A DNA stretch of 64,000 nucleotides from Moorena producens (GTDB taxonomy: Bacteria; Cyanobacteriota; Cyanobacteriia; Cyanobacteriales; Coleofasciculaceae). The stretch is from the NCBI RefSeq assembly GCF_965240435.1, contig NZ_CBDEKO010000003.1; one strand, 5' to 3'. Positions 2,676 to 43,957 of the stretch are shown here, piece after piece. Below the pieces are notes generated by a model. It searched no databases and was not told where the DNA came from. It saw only the letters and a program-made list of their open reading frames with translations. Position 1 is the first letter of the stretch, and every line of letters starts with the position of its first letter. The translations under genes and the position numbers were made by a program.

Positions 2676-2682
2676 AATATTT

Positions 2683-3567: not shown

Positions 3568-3680
3568 GTAATTTAATTCTATTTATGTTATGGTTTTCAG
3601 CTCACCTTAAAATAATCATTGCTACCTTTACTAATTACACAGATAATCAGCCTATTCAAATCAACTTTAAACTATTGATT

Positions 3681-4994: not shown

Positions 4995-5059
4995 AATATC
5001 CTAATTGTGTCAGAATTTGTTAATTGCTATCAGTGTTTAAAGGTGATCCAATTCGCAGT

Positions 5060-6130: not shown

Positions 6131-6268
6131 CAGAAAAACTCCGGGAGTTTGGAAACCGCCGACTTCTAGTCACAGCAAAGGGCTTACACCGGAATTCATC
6201 TGTCCGCCTCCCTGGAGACTCCCGCTATAATCTTTGATTTAGCGGTGAGAGGAAAGGGAGGACAGGGT

Positions 6269-7543: not shown

Positions 7544-7860
7544 AATCGTGTTTCTCTCCTATTACTAGGGTGAAGTTCGCTGAGTGCTTCGCACACGCTT
7601 GCGCGAACGCCAATGTTTTTTGAGTTTGTCTTGCTAATAGCACTGTCCTAACCCGTTTACGACTGTTTAACTATTAACCACAGAGCAAAAGACTAGCGAC
7701 GCATCTAAGGGTGTGATAGCTCAAAAAACGGAGTACTTCGAGTACTTAGGCTGGTCACGTTATGAGCTTTTTCAAGCCCCCGTTATACCGCGATTAGCGG
7801 TTAACGGTGGGTTCGTGACTTCCAGTGCTGATCAGCCCCTTAGGCTGGATTGAACTAAAA
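7544..7860 (-). ncRNA. Candidate omegaRNA (IscB guide-RNA scaffold) directly 5' of iscB
   Basis: About 400 bp of non-coding sequence between the iscB start and the upstream gene, rich in stems on the minus strand (gttcgcgcaagcgtgtgcgaagc...gcgaac; gagtacttcgagtac palindrome). Direct repeat ctaaaaaaactc(aaa/aac) near 7850-7880 may mark the element boundary and guide-adjacent end. The 5' extent is unknown. Confidence 0.4.
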
Positions 7861-7977
7861 AAACTCAAACTAAAAAAACTCAACAAATACACCAGCTAAG
7901 GCGATCATATTGGCTTTCATTGTTCAACCCAACCTACGGGCTTCGCAACTTATAGTGCTGCGCTTACCATTCAGCGT

Positions 7978-9591: not shown

Positions 9592-10656
9592 ATGCTTGAT
9601 ACAAATTCAGTTTTAGACGTATTACGACCGGTACAAGACCCCGAACTCCAGAAGAGTTTGGTGGAATTAAATATGATCCGCAATGTCAAGGTTGACAACG
9701 GTACAGTCAGTTTTACCTTAGTGTTGACTACCCCAGCCTGTCCCTTGCGGGAATTTATTGTAGAGGATTGCCAGAAGGCAGTGAAACAGCTATCGGGAGT
9801 AGAAGAGGTAGTCGTGGATGTTACCGCTGAAACACCTCAGCAAAAATCCTTGCCTGACCGCACTGGTATTGAGGGCGTAAAAAATATTCTAGCCATTTCC
9901 AGTGGTAAGGGGGGAGTCGGTAAGAGTACTGTTGCGGTAAATGTGGCAGTTACTTTGGCTCAGTTGGGGGCAAAAGTGGGTCTCCTAGACGCTGATATCT
10001 ATGGTCCAAATGCTCCAGCTATGCTGGGATTAGCTGATGCCAAAGTGATGGTTCAGAAAGGAAAACAGGGGGATGTCATCGAGCCAGCCTTCAACCACGG
10101 TGTCAAGCTAGTGTCCATGGGATTTCTAATTGATCCAGACCAGCCAGTGATTTGGCGCGGACCGATGTTAAATGGGATTATTCGCCAGTTCCTCTATCAG
10201 GTAGAGTGGGGTGAATTGGACTATCTGATTGTGGATATGCCACCAGGCACTGGGGATGCTCAGCTAACCTTAGCCCAAGCAGTACCGATGGCAGGAGCAG
10301 TAATTGTGACAACACCCCAAAATGTCGCTCTGTTAGACTCCCGCCGAGGCTTGAAAATGTTCGAGCAAATGGGAGTCCCGGTGTTGGGAATAGTAGAAAA
10401 TATGAGTTACTTTATCCCACCAGACTTGCCCGACCGTCAGTATGACCTGTTTGGCTCTGGAGGAGGTGAAAAAACATCAAAAGAACTAGGGATTCCCTTG
10501 CTCGGTTGTATTCCCCTAGAAATTTCCCTACGCCAGGGAGGGGATCAAGGATTGCCCATCGCGGTTGGCAATCCAGAGTCAGCCTCCGCTAAAGCACTGG
10601 TAGCGATCGCATCTCAGATTGCTGCCAAAGTTTCCATTGCTGCCCTGTCTAATTGA
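9592..10656 (+). CDS. apbC: Mrp/ApbC family Fe-S cluster carrier ATPase with N-terminal DUF59-like domain
   Basis: ORF track 354 aa. Walker A SGKGGVGKST, with the conserved CxxC region near the C-terminus. Confidence 0.85.
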   Translation: MLDTNSVLDVLRPVQDPELQKSLVELNMIRNVKVDNGTVSFTLVLTTPACPLREFIVEDCQKAVKQLSGVEEVVVDVTAETPQQKSLPDRTGIEGVKNILAISSGKGGVGKSTVAVNVAVTLAQLGAKVGLLDADIYGPNAPAMLGLADAKVMVQKGKQGDVIEPAFNHGVKLVSMGFLIDPDQPVIWRGPMLNGIIRQFLYQVEWGELDYLIVDMPPGTGDAQLTLAQAVPMAGAVIVTTPQNVALLDSRRGLKMFEQMGVPVLGIVENMSYFIPPDLPDRQYDLFGSGGGEKTSKELGIPLLGCIPLEISLRQGGDQGLPIAVGNPESASAKALVAIASQIAAKVSIAALSN

Positions 10657-12480: not shown

Positions 12481-13149
12481 ATGCGCCTTCCCTTACCCCA
12501 GTTTACTCCCAGCAATCGCTCAGAACATCACCTTGCTGAGGTGATTGAAACAGCAACTACAGAATTTCTAGCTCAATGTTTAGAGCCAGAAGATCTAAGC
12601 TTTCCGGTCATGCCTCCCTTTGGCAGCTGGGTAAAATCTGTAGATGATGAGTCAGGTAATCAAATTTTTGCTGTAGTTTATTATGCTACGACTAGCCCGA
12701 TTGACTCGGTTCATCGAGCAACAGCTTTAGGATTGTCACTGGCAGAATTACGTGAGCAGCAGCCTCAGATTTTTGCCATGCTCAAAACTGAGTTTCGTGC
12801 TGCCATCGTTGGGTTTATGTCTTCCGAAGAGGGTGTTAATGGTTTTAGCAACCATCACGGTCGAGTCTATCAGTATCTTCCACCCCGTCCACCGCAAATT
12901 CATCAACCTGTCTACCAGTGTGAACCATCAGAGGTTATTCACTTTAGTGAACAGTTGGATTTTTTGCGAACACTTTTGGAAGTCAATGGTGCCCCAGTAG
13001 ACCCACTGACAGCAGCTGTGATTAGGGAAGTTTATCGTCTTCGTCAGACTGACCGCGACTGGTTAGTCAAGGCCGGACGAACCTTGAGTGTCTTACTTAA
13101 GGATGATTATGACCGCTTGCGGTATATTTTGAGTCAAATTCATTGTTGA
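12481..13149 (+). CDS. Conserved hypothetical protein
   Basis: ORF track 222 aa. No recognisable motifs. Its stop codon abuts the TnpB element's right-end hairpin. Confidence 0.45.
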   Translation: MRLPLPQFTPSNRSEHHLAEVIETATTEFLAQCLEPEDLSFPVMPPFGSWVKSVDDESGNQIFAVVYYATTSPIDSVHRATALGLSLAELREQQPQIFAMLKTEFRAAIVGFMSSEEGVNGFSNHHGRVYQYLPPRPPQIHQPVYQCEPSEVIHFSEQLDFLRTLLEVNGAPVDPLTAAVIREVYRLRQTDRDWLVKAGRTLSVLLKDDYDRLRYILSQIHC

Positions 13150-13178
13150 CATCTCCCCCGGTTGAAACACGGGGGATT

Positions 13179-14570
13179 CTACGAGGTTGTTACGTGGCAG
13201 GTTGAAACCGTGCTACGTAACAACCTCGTTCGATATGATTTTTTCAGGGATTTGAAAATGTCATATCGATGTGGAACTGTCAAAAATTCCCTACTCACCT
13301 TGGCTAGATCAATACCTAGCTGTGTGGCTACTTTTCTAGCGATGTTAGTCGCTCCATTACAATCAGCGTTAATCAGGCACCCAGAAGAAGTTTTGTACAA
13401 TCCACGCTTCACTCTTTTCCCTGACGGTTTCCAGTTCTTGGGTTTTTCACCATAATTTGGAAGGCTGTCTTTGTCTAGGCAAGACGCTTTACTGGTGTAC
13501 GCTTCTTCGGTAATTGTCAGCTTAATCCCATATTCAGGGCAAAGTTGTTCAAGTCTATTGATTAATCTTTTTGTTGGGATAACTACAAAGTTCTGATTGC
13601 CCCGCTTTCCTATATTGATTGAATCTTTTTGGCGTTCGTTCCAGCCAATTATCAAGTTTCCTACGCGATCACTAAGACAACGGTTAATAATAAACCTGGC
13701 GGCTTTATTAATTGCATCTCGCATCTGGTTGTTTCGTTTCCGTTGGACACGATCGAGATTGGAATCCCAATAAAACTCGGGCTTACCAGTTTTATACTTT
13801 GCAACCAAACGAGCATACCCTTGGTTCATTGATTTAAGCTTACGACCATCAATGATTAGGCTTTTTCCGTGGGTCGAAACTCCGGTCAGCCAATTATCGC
13901 CACCGTGATCAAAACTCCATGCCTGTGAGTAATCAAGATTTGGGTTACTCTCTACCGGTTTCTTTCCGTCATCAATTACCCAATCGATCCACAGCTGCCC
14001 CAGATATGGGCGAACAGTTACTTCATTGACCCAATCTGGATCAATGAAATCTGGAGCTTGCAAAGTAATTTTAGTAAGCAGATCTGGTTTGCTTTCTTTA
14101 CTTATTGACGGACAAAACAGACCTTCTTTGTAAGTGAGAGCCTGTCTAGGAAAAGTAACAGCAGCCAATCCCCCTTTCTTTCGGTACCTAAGAAGTTTTG
14201 GTCTATCTACTTGGCCTTTGTAGTATAGACCGACAAGTTGGTTATAACTTGTGATTGACTCGGCTACAGATTTAAGGGTTTGTTGTGCCGACTGAGCGGC
14301 CATGGCCTTGTAATGTGGGTTATCTTTCAGTTCTCTACAAAGTTCTGCGTATTTGGTGCTGCACTTGTAAGTTTTCCAGCCATAGCGCAGAATTTCATCT
14401 TTCCAATAAGTTGTATAAGCTTCTGGTTGCTGTTCTAACCATTTGTAATGCTTTTGTTTAGAATAATAAGTCGCACAATTCCATAAGTTGTTAGCATTTT
14501 CACATTGGAACACCCAGAAAGCTTTATCCTCGTCTGAGAAGTCAGCTCTTACTGAAACCGTCCTATACAT
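13179..14570 (-). CDS. tnpB: TnpB (IS605 OrfB family RNA-guided endonuclease)
   Basis: ORF track 463 aa. RuvC-I SFDHG. RuvC-II E in ITEEAYTSK. Zn finger C-x-x-C...CLINADCNG. RuvC-III NADCNGATNIARK. Confidence 0.9.
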   Translation of the reverse strand: MYRTVSVRADFSDEDKAFWVFQCENANNLWNCATYYSKQKHYKWLEQQPEAYTTYWKDEILRYGWKTYKCSTKYAELCRELKDNPHYKAMAAQSAQQTLKSVAESITSYNQLVGLYYKGQVDRPKLLRYRKKGGLAAVTFPRQALTYKEGLFCPSISKESKPDLLTKITLQAPDFIDPDWVNEVTVRPYLGQLWIDWVIDDGKKPVESNPNLDYSQAWSFDHGGDNWLTGVSTHGKSLIIDGRKLKSMNQGYARLVAKYKTGKPEFYWDSNLDRVQRKRNNQMRDAINKAARFIINRCLSDRVGNLIIGWNERQKDSINIGKRGNQNFVVIPTKRLINRLEQLCPEYGIKLTITEEAYTSKASCLDKDSLPNYGEKPKNWKPSGKRVKRGLYKTSSGCLINADCNGATNIARKVATQLGIDLAKVSREFLTVPHRYDIFKSLKKSYRTRLLRSTVSTCHVTTS

Positions 14571-29064: not shown

Positions 29065-30594
29065 ATGCTACCAATACCGGATTACTTAATTGCCCTGACT
29101 GTAGTACTGGTGGTAATCCCATCAGTATTCGTAATTTTACTACGTTTTGCTCTCCATACCCATCTTTTATCCCTAGGGAAGCGAGTAAGAAGACTAATCC
29201 ATGGACAGCCTCGTGGGAAAAAACCCAGAATTGTAGAGGAGCTAGAAAGACGGTTCTCAGATGCTAGCCGACATTTAGAGCAGGTCAATACAGGCGCATT
29301 AATTGACCAAGCCTACAGCCACGAAAAAGTTGTTGGCATATCTTGTGACCAAATTGATTACATTGGTCGGATTATGCCTAGCTTACTGTTATCCTTTGGC
29401 TTACTAGGTACCTTTATCGGCATCACCATCAATTTGTTAGCACTCAGTCAAACAATCAGTCAGTCTGATGCTACCGATATCAATACTTTAGTTAACCAAT
29501 TACAGCAACCCCTAGAAGGGATGGGAATTGCTTTTACCACTAGCTTAACCGCTATCTTTTTTAGTGCTGTCTTAACGGTAATTAACGTCGCCTTCAATAC
29601 AGGGCTAGCGAAAAACAATCTAATTAGTTACTTAGAAGATTACTTGGATAATATTTATCAGCCGAGTTTAGCAGGGCAAACACGCCTGGATGTATTAGTT
29701 CAGGGGATGTCCAATATCTTTGAAAGCTTTTTGGCGAGATTTGGTCAGACTGTTCGAGAAGCAGTGGAATCATCACTACGAGAAAAAGTTCAAGAAATTG
29801 CTGATGCTAACACTCAAGTGCTTAAACTAGCAGAAAATTCTTACAATAGATTCTTCCAAGCTGCTAGTACTATCGCTAGAAGTGCTGAAGAATTTCAACT
29901 AGCTGCTGCTCAATTTACCCAAGTTGCTCAAACCTTTGAGCATAGCCAGTTTCCTCAAAAATTATCTAAGGCTACAGTAGATTTAACTAGAACCCAAAGC
30001 AGTTTCTCTGAGTCAGCCAGTATGTTATCTCAATCAGTGCAAGGCATGGGAGTAGCAATGGCTGAACTTCAACGTCATGGGGTGAAGTTGGTAAAATTGG
30101 CAGAAGAAATCAGTGCCCTCAGACAATCTTCTCTAGAAGTAGTAAAGCAGCATCATCACAGTCAACAAGCCCTAGGGAAGATTATCCCCCAACTTCAGCA
30201 AGGAGCACAGGGATTTCAGTCAGCGATCGCTCGACTTGATCAATTAGAGCAACGGATTGCTTCTCGAAGCGATAGCTTGAGTGACGTTCACGCTGAATTG
30301 GCTAAGTTAGTGTCAAATGTGAAAAGCTATACCGAAGGAGTAAGTCTGGGAATTCAGGCTTTAGGCGATCGCCTTGATCAAAGTATTACTCAGCAAGCTA
30401 ATACTGACCAGCATAATTATGAAATTATGCGACACAATCTTGAAAAAGTTGTCAATCATCTCAATAACACCAATCAGGAAATTGCTAAGATTAGCCAAAA
30501 ACTGACTGAGTCCAATCAAATCGATGGTTCAACTCGCATAACTCAAGATATGACTGTAGGAGAGCTAGTCAGGCGTTTGAGCAGTGAACGATAA
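29065..30594 (+). CDS. MotA/TolQ/ExbB-family proton-channel protein with ~320-aa C-terminal coiled-coil tail (ZorA-like)
   Basis: ORF track 509 aa. N-terminal TM helices, a MotA-type plug/TM3-4 region PSLLLSFGLLGTFIGI...GMGIAFTTSLTAIFFSAVL, then a long heptad-rich helical tail to the C-terminus. Confidence 0.7.
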   Translation: MLPIPDYLIALTVVLVVIPSVFVILLRFALHTHLLSLGKRVRRLIHGQPRGKKPRIVEELERRFSDASRHLEQVNTGALIDQAYSHEKVVGISCDQIDYIGRIMPSLLLSFGLLGTFIGITINLLALSQTISQSDATDINTLVNQLQQPLEGMGIAFTTSLTAIFFSAVLTVINVAFNTGLAKNNLISYLEDYLDNIYQPSLAGQTRLDVLVQGMSNIFESFLARFGQTVREAVESSLREKVQEIADANTQVLKLAENSYNRFFQAASTIARSAEEFQLAAAQFTQVAQTFEHSQFPQKLSKATVDLTRTQSSFSESASMLSQSVQGMGVAMAELQRHGVKLVKLAEEISALRQSSLEVVKQHHHSQQALGKIIPQLQQGAQGFQSAIARLDQLEQRIASRSDSLSDVHAELAKLVSNVKSYTEGVSLGIQALGDRLDQSITQQANTDQHNYEIMRHNLEKVVNHLNNTNQEIAKISQKLTESNQIDGSTRITQDMTVGELVRRLSSER

Positions 30595-32053: not shown

Positions 32054-32635
32054 ATGACCTATGTCGTAGATAAACAAAAAGACCAACTGCTAGTCCACTC
32101 CGGGGTAAGTTGGCATAACTTCAAATCAATTCAAGCGGGGTTCGTCAACTCCCCAGGAATTCGACTGTTCTACTACAGGGGTGAGGTAGAAATATTGGCA
32201 GTTTCCCAAGAGCATGAAGCGTTCAGTGGTGTCATAGCACTGTTGCTGGGTACTTATTTTGTTGAAAAACAAATTGAGTTTACTCCAACCGGCAGCTTTA
32301 CCCAAGAGAAGGAAGGGGAAGCATCTGCACAAGCAGACCAATCTTACCTAATTGGTAGAGCGTCAGGAGTGATTGCAGACCTCTCTATTGAAGTTGTCTT
32401 TACCAGTGGTAACCAGAGCAAGCTAAATCGTTACCGAGCATTAGGAGTACCCGAAGTTTGGTTTTGGGAGGATGGTGTATTTGCTTTGTACCACTTGCGC
32501 TCTGATGGTTACGAAAAAATTTCCCAGAGTGAAGTCTTGCCAGATTTGGATATTGACTTATTGTCTCGGTGTCTGATGATGGCTTCCAAAGTTGAAGCGA
32601 TTAGGCACTTCAGACAAGCTATCTCTGAGACTTAG
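32054..32635 (+). CDS. Uma2 family (DUF820) PD-(D/E)xK-type putative endonuclease
   Basis: ORF track 193 aa. ADLSIEVVFTSGN...KLNRYRALGVPEVWFWE matches the Uma2 D/E/K core. Confidence 0.75.
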   Translation: MTYVVDKQKDQLLVHSGVSWHNFKSIQAGFVNSPGIRLFYYRGEVEILAVSQEHEAFSGVIALLLGTYFVEKQIEFTPTGSFTQEKEGEASAQADQSYLIGRASGVIADLSIEVVFTSGNQSKLNRYRALGVPEVWFWEDGVFALYHLRSDGYEKISQSEVLPDLDIDLLSRCLMMASKVEAIRHFRQAISET

Positions 32636-32819: not shown

Positions 32820-35800
32820 TTATTCCCTTTCTATCGGAGTCCAATCGCCAAAGAGAATAAAACTTGCCCAGTAAAAAGGATGTTGATATTCCTTACTCTT
32901 AAGCATTTCTAATTGAGTCTGACGCAAAGCTTCACTACGCCCCTGATTTGCCTTCAATCGTTGGTAATATTCAATCATCAGGTTTTTTGTTGCTATATCA
33001 TCTACTTGGCACAGGCTAACCAGTTGACTTTCTGTTCCAGCGATAACAAAGGCGCGACGCAGTCCATAGATTCCTTCCCCTATAGTGATATCTCCTAAAC
33101 CTGTCTCACAAGCGGATAAAACTACTAATTCTGTTCCCATTAGATCGAGTCCACTAACTTCTAAAGCTGTCAAAATCCCATCATCACCCCCACTTTGAGC
33201 AAAGTTAACCTCTGCCAATATTAACCCACTACGGAGCAAAGGATTCCCCACCTCGGTTTTGTCTTCAAAGAAGCTGTGAGTAGCCAGATGGAGAATACTA
33301 GGACTATTAACTTGTTTGAGGGCATTTTCCGTTGCTTGGGAACCGTTCAGAATTTCGGTATTTGGGAAAACTTGGGCAATGGCTTGTGCTTCCTCAGTCG
33401 TAGTTGGTAAGGGAGGAAATGACATCTGTGGGATGGAATAATTTGAGTTAGTAGCTAACCCTTCACCTAGTCCGTTATCGAGAGGATTGCCTTGTATATC
33501 GAGAGGATTGGCTAGTATCAATGGGGGTTGTTGGCTGGGGATTTTGCTTTGTAGTCGCAGTAAGTCTCGTCCAGAGGTTAGATAGGTGAAGTTGTAGTTT
33601 TCAATGAGATAGTGGTTATTTTCATCAACTAGAGCTTGAAAGGGAATCAGGCCAAGTATGCCATCAGGAGAAAGGAGGACATGACGGAAATCTTCTAGGG
33701 GATTATTTAAACCTTGGTAGGGTTTTCCTAGCAATTGTCGTACAGGCTGCATTACAAGAGCATCAAGTGTTCTGGAGGATTGCTTGAGTTGCTTGATGGG
33801 GTTATGTCTGTCTTGCAAACTAAAGCGGAAATCAACCAATGCCTGTTCGATGGCTTCTGCATCTCCTAAGTCTATCCCTTGTGGGTCCCCTTGTGGACGA
33901 AGGATGTAAGCAGCATAGCGAGGTTTACCAAAACCTTGGTTGAATGGAGCCTTAGGATTAAAGGGTCGGTATTGTACCAATTCCACTAACACAGCATTGG
34001 CAGGAATAAGTTTTTGAATAGCTTCTAGGGTGATGGGTTGGGACAGGGTACGAAATTCAGCACTGCGGCGGCTAATTTGGTTTTCGAGTTGGTGAGCTTC
34101 CGCTGTTAGGGTGTTGATTTGCTGGCGATATTGTTGGAGAGAAACATTATTTTCGGGTTTTTGGTAATATAGGTTGGCTAATTGGGTGCGAGTGTTGTTG
34201 AGTTGATCCAGTAACCTTTGGCTTTCAGGATCAATGAGCTGACGGAGAGTTTGTTGATTGTTGGCTAAGACATCGAGAATACGACCCTTGCGTTGTAACA
34301 CAGTAGTGAGAGCAAGACGAGCAGCATTTGAATCGTTTGGTGCAGATTGAAGGTGTAAAGATACGCTGGCATTTGTAGTCTCAGAGAAAGATGCTATGTA
34401 ATTAGCTTTTTGCCTTTCACTACCAGCGATAATATTTCCAGTAAGGTTATATTCTTCAATCTCAAGTCCTTTGATCAAAAAATCAATAGCATCAGCAATA
34501 TTGCCTTGAGCCCAGTAGAGTGTTGATAGGTTATTGAGGGTTTGTGCTACATCGGGATGGTCCTCTCCTAATAGTTTCTTTCTCAGAGCTAATGCTTGGT
34601 GATAGAGAGGTTCTGCCTCACCATACCTACCCTGGAAACTGTATAATTCAGCTAGGTTGTTGAGACTAGCTGCTACATCGGGATGGTTCTCTCCTAATAG
34701 TTTCTGTCTCAGGGCTAATGCGTGCTGATAGAGAGGTTCTGCCTCACCATACCTACCCTGGAAACTATACAAAGCAGCCAGGTTATTGAGACTAGCTGCC
34801 ACATCGGGATGGTCGCTTCCTAATAGTTTCTGTCTCAGGGCTAATGCGTGCTGATAGAGAGGTTCTGCCTCACCATACCTACCCTGGAAACTATACAAAG
34901 CAGCCAAGTCATTGAGACTAGCTGCCACATCGGGATGGTCGTCTCCTAATAGTTTCCGTCTCAGGGCTAATGCTTGCCGATATAAAGGTTCTGCCTCACC
35001 ATACCTACCTTGGAAACGGTACAGAGCAGCCAGGTTGTTGAGACTAGATGCTACATGGGGATGGTCTTGTCCTAATAGTTTCTTTATCAGGGCTAATGCT
35101 TGCTGATACAGAGGTTCTGCCTCACCATACCTACCTTGGAAACTATATAGAGCAGCCAGGTTGTTGAGACTATATGCCACATCGGGATGCTCATCTCCTA
35201 ATAGTTTCTTTCTCAGGGCTAATGCTTGCTGATACAGAGGTTCTGCTTCAGCATACCTACCCTGGAAACTATACAGTTCAGCTAGGTTATTGAGACTAGC
35301 TGCCACATCAGGATGGTCGTCTCCTAATAGTTTCTTTCTCAGGGCTAATGCTTGCTGATAGAGAGGTTCTGCTTCAGCATACCTACCTTGGAAACTATAC
35401 AGAGCAGCCAAGTCATTGAGACTAGCTGCCACATCGGGATGGTCGTCTCCTAATAGTTTCCGTCTCAGGGCTAATGCTTGCTGATACAGAGGTTCTGCCT
35501 CAGCATACCTACCTTGGAAACGGTACAGAGCAGCCAGGTTGTTCAGACTAGACGCTACATCGGGATGGTCTTGTCCTAATAGTTTCTGTCTCAGGACTAA
35601 TGCTTGCTGATACAGAGGTTCTGCCTCAGCATACCTACCCTGGAAACTATATAGAGCAGCCAGGTTGTTGAGACTAGCCGCCACATCAAGATGGTCTTGT
35701 CCTAATAGTTTATTCCTAGTATCTAAAGCCTGCTGATAGAGAGGTTCTGCCTCACTGTATCTCCCTTGGAGACTATATAGGTTGGCTAGGTTGGTAAGTA

Positions 35801-38800
35801 CTGCTGCTTCTCCTATAGAATCGGCAATTTTTATACTAATAGCTAAAGCTTGCTTATAAAAGGTGATTCCTTTCTCATACTGTCCTAGGTTGGCATAAGC
35901 TTCTCCCAAGTTATTGAGGTTTAAGCTTTCTGTACTGCGATCGCCAATCTCTCTGCTGATAGCTAAAGCTCGTTCATAGAAAGCAATTGCTTTATTATAC
36001 TGTCCTAGATTGACATAAATAGCCCCCAAATTTAAGAGGTTTAAGCTTTCTGTCCTGCGATCGTCAATCGCTCTGCTGAGGGGTAAAGCTTTTTGATAGT
36101 AATCAATTGCCTTCTGATACTCTCCTAGATTGGCATAAGCTTCTCCCAAGTTATTGAGGTTTAAACTTTCTGTCCTGCGATCGCCAATCTCTCTGGTGAT
36201 AGCTAAAGCTTGTTGATAGTAATCAATTGCCTTATTATACTCTCCTAGATTGGCATAAGCTTCCCCCAAGTTTAAGAGGTTTAAGCTTTCTGTACTGTGA
36301 TCACGAATCTCTCTGGTGATAACTAAAGCTTGTTGATAGTAATCAATTGCCTTATTATACTCTCCTAGAGTAGCATAAGTAGCCCCAATATTTGTAATAA
36401 TTTGTACTTCTAATCCACGATTACCACTATCTCTTGCAAGATGCAAACCTGTTTTAAAATCCTCTAATGCTGCTTTAAATTGACCTTTATTATATTTTTC
36501 AACACCAGTTTTAAGTAAACTTTGAATCTCTTCATCAGTGGCTTGATATCTGGCATCATTTGGAGGAATGAAAGGAATATTAGTATTGCGTGTGATATTT
36601 AGAAATACCGAAGAAGGAATTGCTAATCTACCGCGACTTTTTTCTATAGTGATGCCAATACTCTGTACCCTAGCTTTTATTTGCTGATGAGTTGCAGTGA
36701 ATTGCTGAACATCTACCTGCACAGTGACAAGAGTGTCAGAATCTCTTTCTGTAGCTAGTTCGACCTTATTTTCTAATTCATCAAGTAAATCTAGAGTTTG
36801 ACGTAATGAGTCTGTCGCTGAATTGAGTTTTTTCTCTACTGCTAGTAGTTTATTTTCAGCTTCCTGTTGTTCTTCTCTTGCTATTTTGGCTTCATATCGT
36901 GCATCTTGTACTCTTGCGGTCACTTCTGTCAATTGTTGATCAGCTTCTTGAATCTGCCGTTCCTTGTCCTTAATTTTTATTTGAGCTTCTTCAGTAACTT
37001 GCTTGAGGCGTTTCCTTTCGGCAATTAAGTCTTCATCAATCTGCTGTAATTTCTGCTCTGCATCCTGACGTGCTGAATCGGCTTCTAGTTGAATCTGCCT
37101 TGCTTTTTCTGCTTGCCGCTCTGCTTGCTCTTGATTACTAACTGCTGTTTGTAGTTTTTGTTCTGTTTCATCAACTAATTTTTCTAATTCATTTTTCTCT
37201 TGTAACAAACGATTTTTATCCGTTTTTAATCTCTTTTTTTCTAGATTTTGTTGTTTCTGCATTTCCTGAAGTTGGTATGTAGCATCAACATTAAATTGCT
37301 GGAAGCGTTCCTTTTCGGCAATTAAGTCTTGATTAATTTGCTGTAATTTCTGCTCTGCATCCTGACGTGCTGAATCGGCTTTTAGTTGAATCTGCCTTGC
37401 TTTTTCTGCTTGCTGCTCTGCTTGCTCTTGATTACTGACTGCTGTTTGGAGTTTTTCTTTGGTTTCATCAACTAATTTTTCTAATTCATTTTTTTCTTGT
37501 AACAAACGATTCTTATCCGTTTCTAATCTCTTTTTTTCTTGGCGTTTCTGTTTATGTATTTCCTCAAGTTGGTATTTAGCATCAACTAATTTCCGGTTGG
37601 CTCTACTGGCTAATATTATTGCGGAGCCTGCTCCTAATAGAGATATTGTGAGCACAATAAAACCCATACGCATTCTCTGAGCAGCTCTGTTTTGAGCCTT
37701 AGTTAGAATCTTATTGGCTTCTTTCTCAGCATTCAGAGCTAGTTCAGCACTGCGTTTCTCCAATTCTTGACTAGCAGCTAAAAACTGATAATCTAAATCA
37801 ATCAAGCTTTTATCCTTTGCCCATGCTTGAGCAGTCTGTAATGTCTGCCCTGTTAACAGCCGGGATTGATCTTGAAAATTAGAAGCTAACCAAGCCTGTA
37901 TTGACTCAGAGTAGGGGCGCAGGTGTTCTAATTCTTTTTCAAAAAAACTCTGATCAAAAACAGCTTCATAAATGCGGTTATAAACTCTTAATTTGCCATT
38001 CTGTTTAATTACCAAGCCCGACAGCCGCAATTCAACTTGCTCAAGACTGTCATCTGTAGTTATTTCTCGATGCTGCCAAATTTGCTGATAAAGTCCCAGC
38101 CGCCGTCCCAACCTTTGCTGATTCGAGAGAAGGCGATTACGGATGGTTCTCAAATGTTCTGGATTATCTTGAGATTCCCAATTTTCAATCAATCTGGACT
38201 GCACAAGTTGTTCGACCCACTCAGCTTCCTCTCCAATCGGAATAGGGGACTCAGATACAGAAATAAGTTGGCAAAGCTTTTGGGTCAAAAAAGGTTGACC
38301 CCCTGTCCAAACCAACACCTCTTTTAAAACTGTCTGAGGATTCCCGGTTTTAAGGGCTAAACCCCTGGCTAAGGGCTGAGCTTCATGGAGTTTAAAGCCA
38401 CAGGGTTCTATGGCTTTTCCAATGTTGAAAGGAGTGCGGTTTTTGTTTTGAATAAAATCCGAAGGTGTAGCAACTCCTAACAGGGCAAAGGTGAGACGTT
38501 TGTAGGCCGGTTTATCTACCCGCTGGTTGTAACAAGACCGAATAAAAGCAAAAAAATCGTCAGTAGAAAAATTTAAGCTGAGGACACTATCAATTTCATC
38601 AATAAAGATGACAATATGTTCATGTATTTCTTCTAGCAAAACTTCCTCAATAAACTCGCTCAAGCGCTGCACGGGAGATTCTAATTGCCGCTCCTTCCAC
38701 CACTTTCTGCGGTTAATTTTTCCTAATAGCTCAAACTCACTAACCAACTCATAGAACACTGCCATATACCAACCAACTGGGGTCACGTTTTCACTCCCAA

Positions 38801-39035
38801 TAGTGGTTAGGTCGATAGCAGCACAACTTACCCCTTCTTGCTCCAGCCTTTGCATCGTTCGCACTCGTAGGCTGGACTTACCCATCTGCCGCGAGTTGAG
38901 CACATAACAAAATTCCCCAGCCTTCACTCCCTCATAAAGCTCTTGGTCTGCTTGACGCACAACATAGGTAAGGGAATCAGCCGCTAGGCTTCCGCCAACT
39001 TGATATTGATAGACTGGGCTTTTTTCTGTACTCAT
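32820..39035 (-). CDS. Giant AAA-like NTPase / TM / coiled-coil / TPR / CHAT (caspase-like protease) protein
   Basis: ORF track 2071 aa. N-terminal AAA-like domain ([10 protein letters not shown] Walker A-like, [11 protein letters not shown] Walker B). One TM helix. A tandemly duplicated ~95-aa coiled coil. Three or more classical TPRs plus 12 near-identical 42-aa kinesin-light-chain-type TPRs ([36 protein letters not shown]). A C-terminal CHAT domain with His (LHLATHS) and Cys ([10 protein letters not shown]). Confidence 0.85.
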
Positions 39036-39096
39036 CTCACTGGTAAATTTCCTTTGTTTTATCTAAATTTATTTTTAGGAAAAACAGATGGGTCAG

Positions 39097-40404
39097 TTAT
39101 AGATGTTGGCGGAAATACTTAGAATATAAGTCGCAGCGAGGCTTGACATCGTTACCTTCAAGTATTACTAACCCAAGGCTTTGTAACTTAAAGCCTTGGG
39201 TTGCTTCTAATTGCACAGGTTGAGTAACCTCAACAACCTTTTTCATCGCTGTAGCCAGTTCTGGATACTGTCGTAAATTACACAAATGTCCGCGCAGATG
39301 ACTGCTGTAAATTCCTGATTCTGTGTGTGCAGTTTGCAGGAATCCTTCAAAAGTGATTTCCTGATTGGTTAGACAATAGATGGCTCGCTGTACCCGATAA
39401 GGATGACCTCCTACCAAGGACATGAGTTGGTTAACTTGTGAACTGTCCCAATCGAGTCCCTGCCGCTTGCCTAAATCCTGTACCTGTTCTTGGCTAAACT
39501 CTGGTAAGTCTATTGCTATTCCAACATTGAAGGGGGAATGATTGAGATTGAGGGGAATATAAACTTCTGTGGAGTGGGCAACAATTAAGCGCAATTTTTG
39601 CCAGAGTGGGCGACTCTTAGCTTTCTCATGCCAAGCTCTCAACATCCCCAAAAAGTCCCCAGCAAAGGGAACTCCAAAAACCCGATCTACTTCATCTATG
39701 ACTAAAACCAGAGGACTATTTATTTGAGTCAACAGATGTTGCTCAAAATAAAGGGTGCAGTTATAGCTGCTACCGAAACCCTCCTCCCAGTAATCCGCCA
39801 GTTGCGTCGGTAATCCTAACTGCCGACAAACTACAACACAAAACCAGCGCAAGAATTCATCTAGCCCTTGCAAAACTGCTCCATCTGCCAGCAAGAGGCT
39901 CAAGGACACTGTACGATAATTGTGCTTGAGTGCCTTGGCTAGAATCCGATCAATTAACCAGGTCTTACCCATCCGCTTAGAACCTTTAATGCGCAGTAGG
40001 GAACCTGGCTGTTTGATAGTTTTAAAGCACCGAGATTCGATGGGAGGTCGCTCGACGTAGTTGGGAACCTCTGGTTCTACTTCAATCTCAGCAAGTGCCA
40101 GTGTAGCTTCTTCACATTCCGCTTCCCTGCCTAGGGAGGTGTCTTCAGTGCTGTTATCATCAAAATCGGCTATTTTTTCCCAGTCTTGAGCCAATCGGCT
40201 GCAAATTTCCCAAAAATTCAAATAATCGACAGGTCTGCCATTGAGAAAATTACTCACAGTGGATAAAGATAGCTGTAAATCTTGTGCTAGGTCTTGCTGG
40301 CGTGCAAAGCGATGACGCCTGAGAGCTGATTTGACTTGTTTAATGTACTGGGGAGCAACTTTGAGCGACCTTGACATGGCGCATAATTGAGCAACTTTTC
40401 TCAA
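39097..40404 (-). CDS. HTH (XRE-like) + AAA-like domain NTPase
   Basis: ORF track 435 aa. N-terminal HTH DLAQDLQLSLSTVSNFLNG. GSKRMGKTWL Walker A-like and LVLVIDEVDRV Walker B. Same AAA-like family as the N-terminus of the downstream giant gene. A 61-bp gap suggests an operon. Confidence 0.75.
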   Translation of the reverse strand: MRKVAQLCAMSRSLKVAPQYIKQVKSALRRHRFARQQDLAQDLQLSLSTVSNFLNGRPVDYLNFWEICSRLAQDWEKIADFDDNSTEDTSLGREAECEEATLALAEIEVEPEVPNYVERPPIESRCFKTIKQPGSLLRIKGSKRMGKTWLIDRILAKALKHNYRTVSLSLLLADGAVLQGLDEFLRWFCVVVCRQLGLPTQLADYWEEGFGSSYNCTLYFEQHLLTQINSPLVLVIDEVDRVFGVPFAGDFLGMLRAWHEKAKSRPLWQKLRLIVAHSTEVYIPLNLNHSPFNVGIAIDLPEFSQEQVQDLGKRQGLDWDSSQVNQLMSLVGGHPYRVQRAIYCLTNQEITFEGFLQTAHTESGIYSSHLRGHLCNLRQYPELATAMKKVVEVTQPVQLEATQGFKLQSLGLVILEGNDVKPRCDLYSKYFRQHL

Positions 40405-40939
40405 ATCATAGCTTTCTTTCCCAGTCTCTCTGGGTAAGTAAATAAAAAGTCACTAATAAGTCAGTTATCAGTAAAAGGTTCCTAGAAACTTGGCCTATTT
40501 TAATGGTTTCCTGGCTTTCAACTCAAAATTTTCACCAGAAGTGTTTGAGAAAGTCCGGGATAGATCAGGTGATCGTGGGGTAATTTGGTGAGTTTAGGCT
40601 TTTTGTTAGATACTAATGATATAGTTAATGTGCTTTCTGACCCTTTGTGACTACAGTTCTGAGTGCTGAGTAAGAACTATCAGTGCTATGGCAAAGCCTT
40701 AGTTAGAATAATCCTTAAGATTAACCCTAGGAATTGGTATCAACAAGCACATCTTAAAGGAAAATTTTGTGGTATTGCTCTCATATCCCCTTAAACCGAG
40801 TAAATGTCACTCACTCTCTAGAATCCGGTGGTTGACAAATCCCGAGGGTGGGGATAAGCAAAATACTCGACTTAAAGTGTAAGCTAATTGGAAAAGCAAT
40901 CAAGTCCATTAGCAGGTCTTTGGGTCATAGATATCGACA

Positions 40940-43900
40940 ATGGCTAAGAAGTACTGGGAATTTCTACTACAGAAAGAGGGGGAGCGCTCCTGGAAGCCAA
41001 TCAAGTCTTCTGAGATTGAGATTGAATCTGGTCGGTATCGGATAGTGGCTCGTTCCAACCTGCCCAATACTGATGTAGAAATTTGCGTCACCTATGATAG
41101 CAAAGAGCAAGTGCCACCCAGACGTAAGTCCCAGAGGCGATGGCGTCGCACCAACTCAGAAGGGTTAATGGTGGTGATTCCTTTCACCAAGCTTAAACCT
41201 GGTCTGTGGAAGTTACGTTGCAGTAACGATATCATGGACGATTTTATGGGTCAGTCCTGGCGAAAATCCTTAGGGCTACAAGTTATACCCAAAGTCAAAG
41301 ATGTAGAGACACCCCCTAAAACCTCTGTATCCACCCCAGTAGAATCCACCCCAGTAGAATCCACCCCAGTAGAATCCACCCCAGTAGAATCCACCCCAGT
41401 AGAATCCACCCAAACTGATACTCAGCCGCCTCAACTAGACAATTCACTGACTACACCTGAGCTAGCTGTTGATTCTGCCTCCACCAATACTATTACTAAT
41501 GACCTGAAAGCAACAGATGCTAGTTCAGATGCTAGTTCAGATGCTAGTTCAGAGTTTTCTAACCCTCAGGACTACCAGAGTGAGATCACACCACCAGAAG
41601 AACAACCCATAACCATTGCTGCGCCAGAGTTACTTGACCAAGCAAAAGCAGCAATGGGGGTTAGCCAAGAGGAATCTAGTCCTAGTCAAGAGACGGTTTG
41701 GCAAGGGGTAGAAGAGGTTGACCCAAAGGCACCTGTTAATCCTGAAACCAACCAACAACCAACAGCAACTATCTCCCAAGACTTACCACTCCAATCGACT
41801 GTTGATAATTCCATCATGGAAGAATCTCTGGAGACTTTGGAGCAACTACTACAACAGGTGCTTCAGCCAGTATTGGATGAGTTGGAAGATCGGGACTCTG
41901 AAGATAACCAACAGCTAAGAAAAACCTCTGATTTAGATTGGGTTTCAGATACACAGGTTAATCAGTACGGTTTAACCCTAAGACTAGATAAGGATATTTT
42001 CCTGGCAAGGCGAGGAGAGTCGTTGACTATCAAAGGGGAATTGGTAGTAGATAATGATAAAATTAATAAGAATGGTGATAGTATAACAGTTAGTGTTTTA
42101 GATAGTGTTCTAGAAAACTTATTCCCTGCTACTCTACGCTATCAATTGCGGTTTCCTCAAACAGGAAAACGTTTGTTAGATATTGAGTACTCCCTATCTC
42201 AAGAGGAGTTATTTTTAGGATTTAGCCATAGTATAGATATTCCGACGGATTGTAAAAGTGGTCTAATTTTAGGAAAAATAACCCTTTATAATTCACAGTC
42301 AACTCCTTTAGCCACTCAACAATTTACTGTTACAGCTAATGTAGAGGATTTATTAGAAGTAATTGTGCCAGGGAATCAGGGGATGCCAATGGAAACCATG
42401 GTAGTACTGGCTAATCGGATCGCTGAATCTGCAAAATCTGATCAACCTGATCAAGAACTTCTCTTCTTAGATGAAGACCCCTTAGAGGAGACTACGCTGG
42501 ATCTGGTTGAGCTACCTCAAAACCATCCATCTCTGTTCTTGCAACCGATCTCTGGACGGTCTTTACCACCAAAACTTTACCACCATCAGCCGAGTGATAT
42601 AACTGTTAAATCCCTCGAATTGCCCAGTTTGCCTACAATGCAGTCGGTTGCTGACTCTGGAGCACAGGGCCAAGACCTCCAAGATCAGTCTAAAGCATCT
42701 GATTCAGTTTCCCTAGATGATCAAGAATCCTCCACTACAGCCAATCCAGAACTAGATAATCGAGAGCAAGATACTGGGTCAGAGTTACAGCCTCAAGACA
42801 CAGTGCTTCAAGACACAGTGCTTCAAGACACAGTAGTTCAAGACACAGTAGTTCAAGACACAGTAATTCAAGACACAGTAGAACAGTCGGAAGATAGTTC
42901 AGAAGATACTAATGACGATAGTAATTTACAGATAAAGTCTGAGGTCTTATCTAATTATAATGATGCTTCTGAAGTGCTGATTAATTCCCTAACGGAATCT
43001 GAGGGAATCCAAAATCTTGAGATTAGTGAGATTGATAAATCTGAAACAGATGATCAGTTAGAGGATTCACAATCGGTTAATACCCAGTTCAAGAATTCCA
43101 AGGTAAACCAATTATTGAATACTACTCGGTGGGAGACTCGAGATTCTGTAAAAGATCCTGAGTCAATCGCTTTAGAAGAAGCTTTCCGAGCTTTAAACAT
43201 GGAAGAGCGTTTTTGGTCACGGTTGAGTGCTTTAGCTGAAGATCATGAATTGATGGAATTGCTGAGGTTAGAATTATCCCCAGAGAGTAATCCTCCTGGG
43301 CAAGATCACTCATCAGTGACAAACGAACAGAGCAATAAAACGGCTAGCAACGAAGAAGAGGTTAGGGAATTTCCAGAAAAGGTCTTGGAGTCAATGACAG
43401 AATCTGAGGATTTGTCGCTAGTTAGTTCAGAATTAGCAATGCCAGAAACACCCCCTAAAGTTGGTATTACTAGTCACGATTGGACGACTCAGGAAATTGT
43501 AGTGGATGATCGAGAAATAGCCCCACAACCGACAAAAGCTACTGCAACCAAGCAACATGACGTTAAGGCTAAACTGGATAATCTTTCATCCCTAGAGTTG
43601 GATGCGACCTTAGCAGCACCGACTTTATCAATACCGACTACTAGGGACTTGGTTGCTGGAGAAAAGGTAATGGTAACCATAAAACTTCCTCCTAGTCAAT
43701 CTCGCTTATGTATTAAATTGTGGGTTAAAGACGTCCAAACTCGCTCTCTGCTCCAGGAAACCCGTTCTATTATAGATTTACTCCCCAATGCGGCTGGGGA
43801 GCTGGAGGCAATGACTCAATTAGTTATACCCCAAGGCACGACTCAAATTAGAATAGAAGCGATCGCAATTAATTTGGAAAATCAGCAGGAGAGTCACAAG

Positions 43901-43957
43901 GCGGAGTTGGAGTGTGTAGTTATTCCTACTGACTTATCGAGTACGGTTGAAGGATGA
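40940..43957 (+). CDS. Large acidic low-complexity protein with pentapeptide tandem repeats, unknown function
   Basis: ORF track 1005 aa. Structured basic N-terminal ~115 aa. (STPVE)x5, (SDAS)x3, (QDTV[LVI])x6. Globular-looking C-terminal ~120 aa. No signal peptide. Confidence 0.55.
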   Translation: MAKKYWEFLLQKEGERSWKPIKSSEIEIESGRYRIVARSNLPNTDVEICVTYDSKEQVPPRRKSQRRWRRTNSEGLMVVIPFTKLKPGLWKLRCSNDIMDDFMGQSWRKSLGLQVIPKVKDVETPPKTSVSTPVESTPVESTPVESTPVESTPVESTQTDTQPPQLDNSLTTPELAVDSASTNTITNDLKATDASSDASSDASSEFSNPQDYQSEITPPEEQPITIAAPELLDQAKAAMGVSQEESSPSQETVWQGVEEVDPKAPVNPETNQQPTATISQDLPLQSTVDNSIMEESLETLEQLLQQVLQPVLDELEDRDSEDNQQLRKTSDLDWVSDTQVNQYGLTLRLDKDIFLARRGESLTIKGELVVDNDKINKNGDSITVSVLDSVLENLFPATLRYQLRFPQTGKRLLDIEYSLSQEELFLGFSHSIDIPTDCKSGLILGKITLYNSQSTPLATQQFTVTANVEDLLEVIVPGNQGMPMETMVVLANRIAESAKSDQPDQELLFLDEDPLEETTLDLVELPQNHPSLFLQPISGRSLPPKLYHHQPSDITVKSLELPSLPTMQSVADSGAQGQDLQDQSKASDSVSLDDQESSTTANPELDNREQDTGSELQPQDTVLQDTVLQDTVVQDTVVQDTVIQDTVEQSEDSSEDTNDDSNLQIKSEVLSNYNDASEVLINSLTESEGIQNLEISEIDKSETDDQLEDSQSVNTQFKNSKVNQLLNTTRWETRDSVKDPESIALEEAFRALNMEERFWSRLSALAEDHELMELLRLELSPESNPPGQDHSSVTNEQSNKTASNEEEVREFPEKVLESMTESEDLSLVSSELAMPETPPKVGITSHDWTTQEIVVDDREIAPQPTKATATKQHDVKAKLDNLSSLELDATLAAPTLSIPTTRDLVAGEKVMVTIKLPPSQSRLCIKLWVKDVQTRSLLQETRSIIDLLPNAAGELEAMTQLVIPQGTTQIRIEAIAINLENQQESHKAELECVVIPTDLSSTVEG

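Follow-up and report, generated by a model that had tools for sequence, protein, structure and literature searches.

A conserved pair of AAA_35 NTPase genes in Moorena producens: a candidate split, membrane-spanning STAND switch

The locus in Moorena producens

The stretch considered here is 64,000 nucleotides of the cyanobacterium Moorena producens (assembly GCF_965240435.1, contig NZ_CBDEKO010000003.1), referred to below, at its full length, as the window. It carries two adjacent genes, here called A and B, whose products share an AAA_35 NTPase domain, the nucleotide-binding oligomerisation domain (NOD) of the signal transduction ATPases with numerous domains (STAND). A sequence-only reading had taken the pair for a candidate conflict system acting by abortive infection or programmed cell death. 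The comparisons described below make A and B a conserved two-gene cyanobacterial module, and a two-part receptor seems a better description of the pair than a classic suicide protease. Whether the locus is a split, membrane-spanning STAND switch, similar to the nucleotide-binding leucine-rich repeat (NLR) proteins and with an autoregulated transcriptional output, we regard as evenly balanced. The features on which the analysis rests are as follows.

32820..39035, minus strand: gene B, 2071-aa AAA_35-transmembrane-coiled coil-TPR-CHAT protein (open reading frame, translation and Pfam)
39036..39096, minus strand: A-B spacer, 61 bp, with aagga upstream of the B ATG
39097..40377, minus strand: gene A, 426-aa HTH-AAA_35 protein (effector-NOD), start set by homologue alignment
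40168..40377, minus strand: XRE-like helix-turn-helix (HTH) of A, residues ~1-70 (HTH_31 below cutoff, family profile, AlphaFold2 model)
39106..40086, minus strand: AAA_35 of A, a STAND-type NOD with helical and winged-helix parts (GSKRMGKT, VLVIDEVD, SPFNVG, GGHP)
37953..38993, minus strand: AAA_35 (STAND NOD) of B, residues 15-361 (Pfam, 109.1 bits, cutoff 27)
37668..37952, minus strand: conserved juxtamembrane helical region of B, probably cytoplasmic, residues 362-456, with the motif LLxGxxLxxAxxW...FLxAS (conservation profile)
37605..37667, minus strand: single transmembrane helix of B, residues 457-477 (Kyte-Doolittle)
36636..37604, minus strand: K/E/Q-rich coiled-coil stalk of B, residues ~478-800 (translation)
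34476..36548, minus strand: tetratricopeptide repeat (TPR) array of B, ~16 TPR_12/TPR_10 units (Pfam and Tandem Repeats Finder)
32844..33782, minus strand: CHAT caspase-like protease domain of B, residues 1752-2064 (Pfam, near full-length match)
33276-33278, minus strand: predicted catalytic His1920 of B (HLATHS; CHAT alignment)
33108-33110, minus strand: predicted catalytic Cys1976 of B (LSACE; CHAT alignment)
40434..40477, minus strand: operator-like array of direct repeats with an 11-bp period, (CTTTTACTGAT) AACTGACTTAT TAGTGACTTTT TATTTACTTAC, conserved upstream of HTH-type A genes
40405..40410, minus strand: -10-like hexamer TATGAT, 28-33 nt upstream of the A ATG (sequence and orthologous position)

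The open reading frames and domains that the sequence-only reading had described are present on the list of open reading frames and in the Pfam scan, and the operon it had proposed is well founded: A and B lie on the same strand as an operon-like pair with a 61-bp gap, and no terminator-like site was found in the spacer (39036..39096) on the coding (minus) strand. The start of A has been revised. As first listed, the gene was a 435-aa open reading frame (39097-40404, minus strand) opening at TTG 40404, a codon that directly abuts the conserved TATGAT. Since every aligned homologue begins at MSRSLKV (26/26, in an alignment of 27), which is encoded from the ATG at 40377, A likely begins at that ATG and has 426 amino acids; the annotated A protein, also of 426 aa, has the same start. 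A is 100% identical to a Moorena producens protein found in the protein homologue search. When B was searched with its part in 37536-39035 (minus strand), the exact protein was not among the matches listed, the top identity listed being 75%, and B may be absent from the protein collection or otherwise called there.

Two proteins built on one NTPase domain

The claim that both proteins carry a common AAA-like domain with intact Walker motifs was borne out. AAA_35 (PF14516) was found in A with 458.5 bits and in B, as listed, also above the Pfam gathering threshold of 27 bits, and the two proteins align directly with 22% identity over 216 aa (E 2e-13). They have in common a Walker A motif (GKT in A, GKS in B), a Walker B motif (IDEVD, IDEID) and the motifs SPFNVG/TPFNIG and GGHP/GGQP, all at least about 90-95% conserved in each family (27 A and 118 B homologues). 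The features by which STAND NTPases are recognised fit as well, namely Walker A GK[ST], Walker B hhhhD[DE], a GxP motif in the helical domain and a winged helix after the NOD. The GxP motif and the C-terminal winged helix are the basis on which AAA_35 is classed, with the help of structural models, as a STAND NTPase, probably of the MalT/SSO1545-like kind. The nearest solved folds to the NOD were those of the archaeal proteins SSO1545 and PABY2304, with MalT also matched, and similarity of fold extended to Avs3, Avs4, plant NLRs and CED-4. Searching solved structures by sequence turned up no relative that was informative about the NOD, and a scan of the pair against NCBIfam returned no family at its cutoff. 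AAA_35 is probably the "Npun2340/2341 family", an equation that is a lead rather than a result; Leipe et al. reportedly named that family in 2004 after two adjacent genes of Nostoc punctiforme.

The XRE-type HTH attributed to A is consistent with what is seen across the family, while the match of the window protein by itself is weak (HTH_31, 18.8 bits, E 0.002, under the cutoff of 27). A profile of 27 A homologues matched the XRE-type HTH of HipB among solved structures (E about 0.002-0.009), several A homologues match HTH_3, HTH_19 and HTH_26, and the AlphaFold2 model of A has a four-helix N-terminal domain (helices 9-21, 27-34, 38-45 and 52-61). A stops right after the NOD and winged helix and, to judge from its domains, is a protein without a sensor part.

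B is far larger. The profile annotation that had been suggested as a check returned AAA_35, TPR_12 and CHAT, and the transmembrane helix, coiled coil and roughly 15 TPRs ascribed to B were recovered as a helix at residues 457-477 (19-residue Kyte-Doolittle mean 2.22), a stalk at ~478-800 and ~16 TPRs (TPR_12, 16 stretches, 851 bits). The giant size of B is due to tandem repeats in the DNA: a duplication of 297 bp (99 aa; 2.0 copies, 90% matches, 36995-37586) in the coiled coil, and repeats of 120 bp (4.2 copies) and 126 bp (9.8 copies) in the TPR region. The coiled-coil region has weak SMC and JetC matches, low GC content and strong AT skew. Ten 42-aa TPR units are nearly identical, and a hypervariable TPR sensor was ruled out, with 0 hypervariable positions across the ten.

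The CHAT domain (PF12770) was matched with 275 bits over model positions 2-289 of 289. The sequence-only reading had made much depend on its catalytic dyad, and the dyad is intact, H1920 and C1976 being aligned with the His and Cys of six other CHAT domains (7 aligned in all). The search of solved structures gave a marginal CHAT match, of the Cys region to 8rot_B (E 0.34). The closest relatives of the CHAT region are standalone cyanobacterial TPR-CHAT proteins with 50-61% identity.

A conserved two-gene module in cyanobacteria

More than 4778 homologues of A and more than 6588 homologues of the first 500 aa of B were found, and those with named organisms are nearly all cyanobacterial. The NOD part of B homologues is 60-75% identical, and A orthologues of Lusitaniella, Symploca, Coleofasciculus and Mojavia are 63-70% identical. 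In all five inspected contexts of A orthologues (5/5), a second AAA_35 protein comes next on the same strand, with a C-terminus that varies by locus (faint TPR, PG_binding_1, WD40 or HisKA/HATPase_c). From B outward, an A gene lay upstream in 3/3 contexts.

A census was made with one genome per species (80 loci), the open reading frames being searched with a hidden Markov model of the A family that gives A-type proteins more than 400 bits and B-type proteins, with their N-terminal NOD, 50-90 bits. The count was confined to A genes with 3 kb or more of sequence beyond them, and a same-strand B was found downstream of 13 of the 15 HTH-type A genes (12 within 300 bp) and, within 4 kb, of 36 of the 44 A genes whose N-terminus is of the TIR type described below. 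The two families therefore do occur together elsewhere, a point on which the sequence-only reading had said it could fail. The stop and start codons of A and B often overlap or abut in other loci (gaps of -3 to +1), and the matrices of A-A and B-B identity are correlated (r 0.62, Mantel 0/2000 permutations; r 0.88 in HTH-type pairs).

What varies lies at the two ends of the module. At the N-terminus of A, an XRE-like HTH is present in 31/87 proteins; another 54/87 form one similarity cluster, with a TIR domain in all eight members scanned against Pfam. In these eight the TIR is preceded by nothing, or by a trypsin, nucleotide cyclase, caspase (Peptidase_C14) or protein kinase domain. Long A proteins were also considered as Ser/Thr kinases, a candidate that was dropped when Pfam showed TIR as the common element with a variable extra domain. 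B opens with the NOD and has a hypervariable C-terminus, which may be a histidine kinase, receiver, Macro, Rad50 zinc hook, GAF-PAS-cyclase, NACHT, PG_binding_1, RlpA-like DPBB, CHASE2, periplasmic binding protein, trypsin with or without COP23, TPR, WD40 or CHAT domain. On its domain content B is without an effector part, and A and B together would make up the effector-NOD-sensor plan of STAND proteins, split across two paralogous NODs.

CHAT is one rare, exchangeable option among more than 15 alternative B C-termini. Besides the pair in the window, one further Moorena pair (locus L018) was found to carry it, and it was seen in 0 of the 120 best B homologues. The B protein of L018 (11290-14748, plus strand) has a NOD region interrupted at residues ~270-400 by inserted tandem DPPQPPLTRGEKEKAWIEK-like repeats, and SSC replaces SAC at the catalytic Cys of its CHAT domain. 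At L069 (2939-8833, minus strand), a 587-aa CHAT open reading frame precedes a short A-type gene (348 aa) by 95 bp, and after this gene comes one for a B protein that has a NACHT domain and six transmembrane helices; by this arrangement CHAT can occur on the A side too, as a separate gene or a frameshifted fusion. L045 holds a 1585-aa protein (2123-6880, plus strand) with a signal peptide, a two-partner-secretion (haemagglutinin-type) N-terminal domain and a C-terminal CHAT domain, predicted from this order of domains to be a secreted CHAT protease.

Six loci (L024, L033, L035, L078, L083 and L084) have one A followed or, at L084, flanked by two or three B genes with differing C-termini, an arrangement of one A with several B that is reminiscent, by analogy, of helper/sensor NLR networks. 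Typical cyanobacterial pairs were also met under Acetobacteraceae and Actinomycetota labels of metagenome-assembled genomes (L007 and L078), which are probably mis-binned cyanobacterial contigs.

Membrane topology of B

In most B proteins of full length, a single strongly hydrophobic helix comes about 100 aa past the NOD, and its presence follows the kind of domain that comes after it. Among the top 120 B homologues, the helix was tallied by C-terminal domain type, with these counts of proteins that have it.

HisKA/HATPase_c: 0/20
receiver: 0/1
Macro: 0/1
Rad50 zinc hook: 0/8
PF20694: 0/2
PG_binding_1: 9/9
DPBB (RlpA): 1/1
CHASE2: 1/1
periplasmic binding protein: 2/2
trypsin: 3/3
COP23: 1/1
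TPR: 10/10
WD40: 17/19

The helix is thus absent in 32/32 homologues with the first five types, which are cytoplasmic C-termini, and present in 44/46 with periplasmic-type C-termini, among which trypsin, TPR and WD40 are included. A second line of evidence comes from the residues flanking the helix, with a mean of 4.3 Lys and Arg on the N-terminal side vs 2.9 on the C-terminal side across the B family and more on the N-terminal side in 52/69 proteins; these charges fit the positive-inside rule and indicate an N-in orientation. The third lies in the relatives of the C-terminal part, as standalone TPR-CHAT proteins that are not obviously truncated start with Sec-type signal peptides (37/80), and further CHAT open reading frames at the loci retrieved carry either signal peptides or a domain for two-partner secretion. 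By these three independent lines the TPR-CHAT part of B is probably extracytoplasmic, that is, periplasmic. A cytosolic executioner caspase is made unlikely by the same evidence, and an extracytoplasmic TPR-CHAT part is a poor fit to a cytosolic caspase-like death effector on an apoptosome-like platform.

A repeat array in the promoter of HTH-type A genes

In many genera, the region upstream of HTH-type A genes contains 2-6 direct repeats with an 11-bp period, a unit of about AACTGA(C/G)TT(A/G)T and the core TGA(C/G)TT. The array ends 20-30 nt ahead of a TATGAT or TATAAT hexamer, which is kept at the equivalent position upstream of orthologues, ~30-40 nt before the ATG. In the window a simple consensus promoter scan missed the TATGAT because it has no canonical -35. 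A strict pattern of tandem cores gave 43 matches in 1.42 Mb (both strands), 29 of them, at 19 loci, no more than 250 bp upstream of an HTH-type A gene and none upstream of TIR-type A genes. This regular-expression test is independent of a three-unit position weight matrix, by which the A promoter, at 27.9, was the sole strong match in the 64-kb window. The same array shifted by one unit scored 21.8 and the best match elsewhere 4.8, so that the matrix scan found no further target promoters within the window.

Direct repeats one helical turn apart suit an oligomeric regulator with several equivalent HTHs, as with the MalT boxes. We infer that A binds these repeats and autoregulates the operon. 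An HTH where paralogues have TIR, together with repeats in the gene's own promoter, points to a transcriptional output. Two other loci bear on the array. At L004, in Coleofasciculus PCC 7420, a strong array of three 11-bp repeats (TACTGACTTGC AACTGACTTGT GACTGACTTCC; ~14356-14388, minus strand) lies ~185 bp upstream of a COP23+Trypsin_2 gene (12505-14193, minus strand) adjoining the A/B pair. The HTH-type A protein may thus have this gene as another target, and the COP23-trypsin combination occurs fused to B in other species. In Moorena sp. SIO3I8 (L018), the array is present twice (7850-7882 and 9914-9946, both plus strand), ~2 kb apart with a 216-aa open reading frame and XisH/XisI-like open reading frames between, and it looks like an insertion duplicated the promoter region of this CHAT-bearing paralogous pair.

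A model of the pair and its alternatives

If the pair is a split switch, B would be a single-pass, N-in/C-out membrane protein with its NOD in the cytoplasm and its stalk, TPR array and CHAT domain in the periplasm. A would be a soluble paralogue with the same NOD and an XRE-type HTH in place of the TIR, with or without protease, cyclase or kinase, of its paralogues. An event at the periplasmic TPR-CHAT part, whether binding of a ligand or substrate or proteolysis, would alter the nucleotide or oligomeric state of the B NOD, which would then co-assemble with the NOD of A. The A oligomer would bring a number of HTHs onto the repeats that are spaced by 11 bp in the A/B promoter, perhaps also onto other promoters, and transcription would be switched, with positive autoregulation included. 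The hetero-oligomerisation of A and B, the direction of signalling and the binding of A to the repeats are the parts of this scheme that we infer. Phage or envelope damage may be the trigger, and equally so may other periplasmic cues. More broadly, AAA_35 A/B pairs could be an undescribed class of transmembrane, two-protein NLR-like receptors with exchangeable periplasmic modules, a NOD-NOD relay and exchangeable A outputs, a generalisation that we put forward tentatively and think somewhat more apt to be wrong than right. In such a class the PG-binding, periplasmic-binding-protein, CHASE2, WD40, TPR, trypsin and CHAT modules of B would read the periplasm, the output of A would be HTH-driven transcription on 11-bp repeats or a TIR, caspase, trypsin, cyclase or kinase activity, and the Moorena locus would be a "transcriptional" version with a periplasmic caspase-like protease as its sensor or processor.

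Several points weigh against the split switch with transcriptional output. The flank charges of the window B are nearly balanced (5 vs 4), so its topology rests on family-level evidence, and it would be demanding to export the ~1600 aa that follow a cytoplasmic domain of 456 aa. It is also unusual for a protease to stand where the "sensor" would be, and B variants with a histidine kinase, receiver or cyclase mean that the C-terminus is not always a sensor. At the promoter, XRE-type HTHs usually bind inverted rather than direct repeats, another regulator such as an OmpR-type protein could bind the array, the recognition helix showed no clear covariation with the choice of C or G in the repeat, and the weight matrix was built partly from sites that it recovers, 8 of the recovered sites being outside its training set. 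The mirror-tree correlation of A and B is partly due to shared species phylogeny.

The main rival keeps the topology of B and reverses the direction of signalling. In this inside-out conflict system, which we consider unlikely while ranking it ahead of the other alternatives, the cytoplasmic NOD complex of A and B would detect something inside the cell, for example a phage protein or nucleic acid, and ATP-driven clusters of B would activate the periplasmic CHAT by proximity to cut envelope or periplasmic targets, leading to lysis, growth arrest or filament sacrifice, with the HTH of A being regulatory only. In its favour, induced proximity on STAND platforms is the classic route by which caspase-like proteases are activated, the CHAT domain has an intact dyad, and the other C-termini of B include enzymes or binders directed at the envelope (trypsin, PG_binding_1, DPBB/RlpA); paralogous A proteins with TIR, trypsin or caspase lie beside restriction-modification genes and Trypco1, and the family is expanded in filamentous cyanobacteria. 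Against it, no obvious sensor domain for the cytoplasm is seen in A or B at the Moorena locus, some B C-termini are true ligand sensors (CHASE2, periplasmic binding protein), the TPRs are scaffold repeats with nearly identical units, and the window has neither a PADLOC model match nor a defence-island context. A cytosolic system of abortive infection or programmed cell death, in which the NTPase senses infection via the TPRs and unleashes CHAT on cytoplasmic targets, has in its favour the resemblance of the NTPase, TPR and CHAT set to Avs/NLR-like proteins and to the TPR-CHAT protein Csx29, along with the STAND fold, the intact dyad and the immune-type effectors of paralogues. It appears improbable in view of the conserved transmembrane helix between the NOD and TPR-CHAT, which tracks periplasmic-type domains, the N-in charge bias, the signal peptides of the nearest TPR-CHAT relatives and the rarity and exchangeability of CHAT as a C-terminus, while the order NOD-TPR-protease differs from the effector-NOD-sensor order of Avs and NLR proteins. 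That A and B are merely neighbouring paralogues of independent function, with promoter repeats belonging to an unrelated regulator, would agree with the extra B genes at some loci and with the A genes that have no detectable B within 4 kb (2/15 HTH-type and 8/44 TIR-type). It is very hard to square with the strong, orientation-specific co-occurrence across genera, the overlapping stop and start codons, correlated divergence, complementary domain content and repeats specific to HTH-type A promoters, and we hold it to be most improbable.

The split switch may serve defence or other signalling, and there is evidence both ways. A conflict-system flavour is given to the family by TIR, caspase and trypsin on paralogous A proteins and by Trypco1 and type I restriction-modification neighbours in two loci; hypervariable modules, several paralogues per genome and a TRADD-N-associated gene with two transmembrane helices beside four orthologous pairs point the same way. 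Pointing to ordinary signalling are the HTH, kinase, cyclase, histidine-kinase, receiver, CHASE2 and binding-protein modules, the high conservation of the HTH-type pair (60-75% identity), its housekeeping neighbours in the window and the lack of a PADLOC match. The conflict-system interpretation of the sequence-only reading therefore stands in part: the intact NTPase pair, the dyad and the immune-type effectors of paralogues support it, and the rarity of CHAT, the extracytoplasmic TPR-CHAT part, the HTH output and the lack of any PADLOC model for the NTPase count against it.

Other genes at the locus

The divergent 1005-aa gene reported upstream of the pair is present (40940-43957, plus strand). 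It encodes an acidic, repeat-rich protein for which no Pfam match was found at E<=0.001, and it differs from the small CyanoTRADDas_TM gene that holds this position in four orthologous loci (L001, L002/L003, L006 and L087), where a TRADD-N-associated protein with two transmembrane helices is encoded divergently upstream. CyanoTRADDas_TM was considered as a core component and ruled out; being absent from the window and most loci, it is accessory at most. The other neighbours in the window are housekeeping-type genes (HisRS, EamA, DUF1823 and Uma2). The Uma2-family gene (putatively restriction-endonuclease-like; 32054-32635, plus strand) is convergent to B, and a 509-aa protein at 29065-30594 (plus strand) has a weak TelA match of 19.5 bits, below cutoff.

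Significance and comparison with known systems

In animals, plants, fungi and bacteria alike, STAND and NLR switches have a central role in immunity and in cell death, and to our knowledge those that have been characterised are all soluble, single-chain effector-NOD-sensor proteins. Thousands of cyanobacterial pairs depart from this plan by placing the effector and the variable module on two paralogous NODs, with the variable module usually across the membrane, and one subfamily departs further in having an HTH and its own conserved operator-like array. If the proposed scheme is true, the NLR principle would extend to transmembrane signalling, and the pair would offer a tractable model for the coupling of NOD oligomerisation to DNA binding. 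It would also place a caspase-like CHAT protease in the periplasm, which in filamentous cyanobacteria is shared along the filament, and so bear on the sensing of envelope attack or on signalling between neighbouring cells in multicellular bacteria.

The sequence-only reading had attributed this architecture to bacterial STAND/AAA-like conflict systems already described, an attribution that was not upheld. The AAA_35 pair was not found in the Kaur/Aravind eLife papers and their supplements, where a pair of HTH or TIR with MNS-STAND proteins and a transmembrane partner is not described, and no description of it was found in the searchable literature. In PADLOC-DB v2 no model covers the NTPase modules; the window pair matched a generic TPR model and PDC-S27 (25 bits) only, and the paralogous pairs gave matches to their TIR and trypsin parts only. 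The A/B family is widespread and apparently uncharacterised.

Among the closest known systems is the two-gene nSTAND2 operon, in which two adjacent MNS-like STAND NTPase genes occur with one fused to variable modules. One of its NTPases has eroded NTP-binding motifs and a GT4 or HEPN fusion, and the examples listed come from gammaproteobacteria and lack a transmembrane helix (Kaur et al. 2021, PMC8195603). In contrast, both NODs of the present pair keep Walker A and B and the C-termini differ. The alignment of the A family with one nSTAND2 sequence by hhalign was not significant (E 0.17), and identity with nSTAND2 was ruled out by this result and the two intact Walker sets.

With MalT and the other STAND transcription regulators of the MNS clade, the pair has in common a STAND NOD (Walker A/B, GxP and winged helix) joined to an HTH output. 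MalT forms ATP-dependent oligomers that bind tandem direct repeats, the MalT boxes, upstream of the promoter. It is, however, cytosolic and combines its own sensor with an HTH of LuxR type at the C-terminus in one polypeptide, whereas A has an N-terminal XRE-type HTH with predicted DNA binding, and the sensor or variable part is on a second, membrane-anchored paralogous NOD protein.

Avs1-5, bNACHT and the eukaryotic NLRs and apoptosome ATPases are alike in their effector-NOD-sensor logic and in their TPR or WD40 repeat modules, and paralogous A proteins share TIR, caspase or trypsin effectors with systems of the Avs/NLR type. Those are single cytosolic polypeptides, and the pair did not conform to the Avs type, as the effector is on A and the variable module on B, which has a transmembrane helix. 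In the A/B family the two parts reside on two NOD paralogues, the variable module usually past a transmembrane helix, and in the window the effector is an HTH.

TPR-CHAT proteases, both Csx29 of the type III-E CRISPR Craspase and standalone cyanobacterial proteins, resemble the end of B in having a TPR array followed by CHAT with a His/Cys dyad. Csx29 is cytosolic and gRAMP-bound, and the standalone proteins of cyanobacteria carry signal peptides but lack an NTPase, whereas in B the same module comes behind a NOD, transmembrane helix and coiled coil.

The paired NLRs of plants (RGA4/RGA5, RRS1/RPS4 and the NRC network) offer an analogy of logic only. Here too, as is well established, sensing and execution are split over two linked paralogues; unlike A and B, these are eukaryotic, cytosolic or nuclear proteins with no membrane-spanning partner. 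A plant executor can serve several sensors, a relationship that may be compared with the cyanobacterial loci in which one A gene accompanies two or three B genes.

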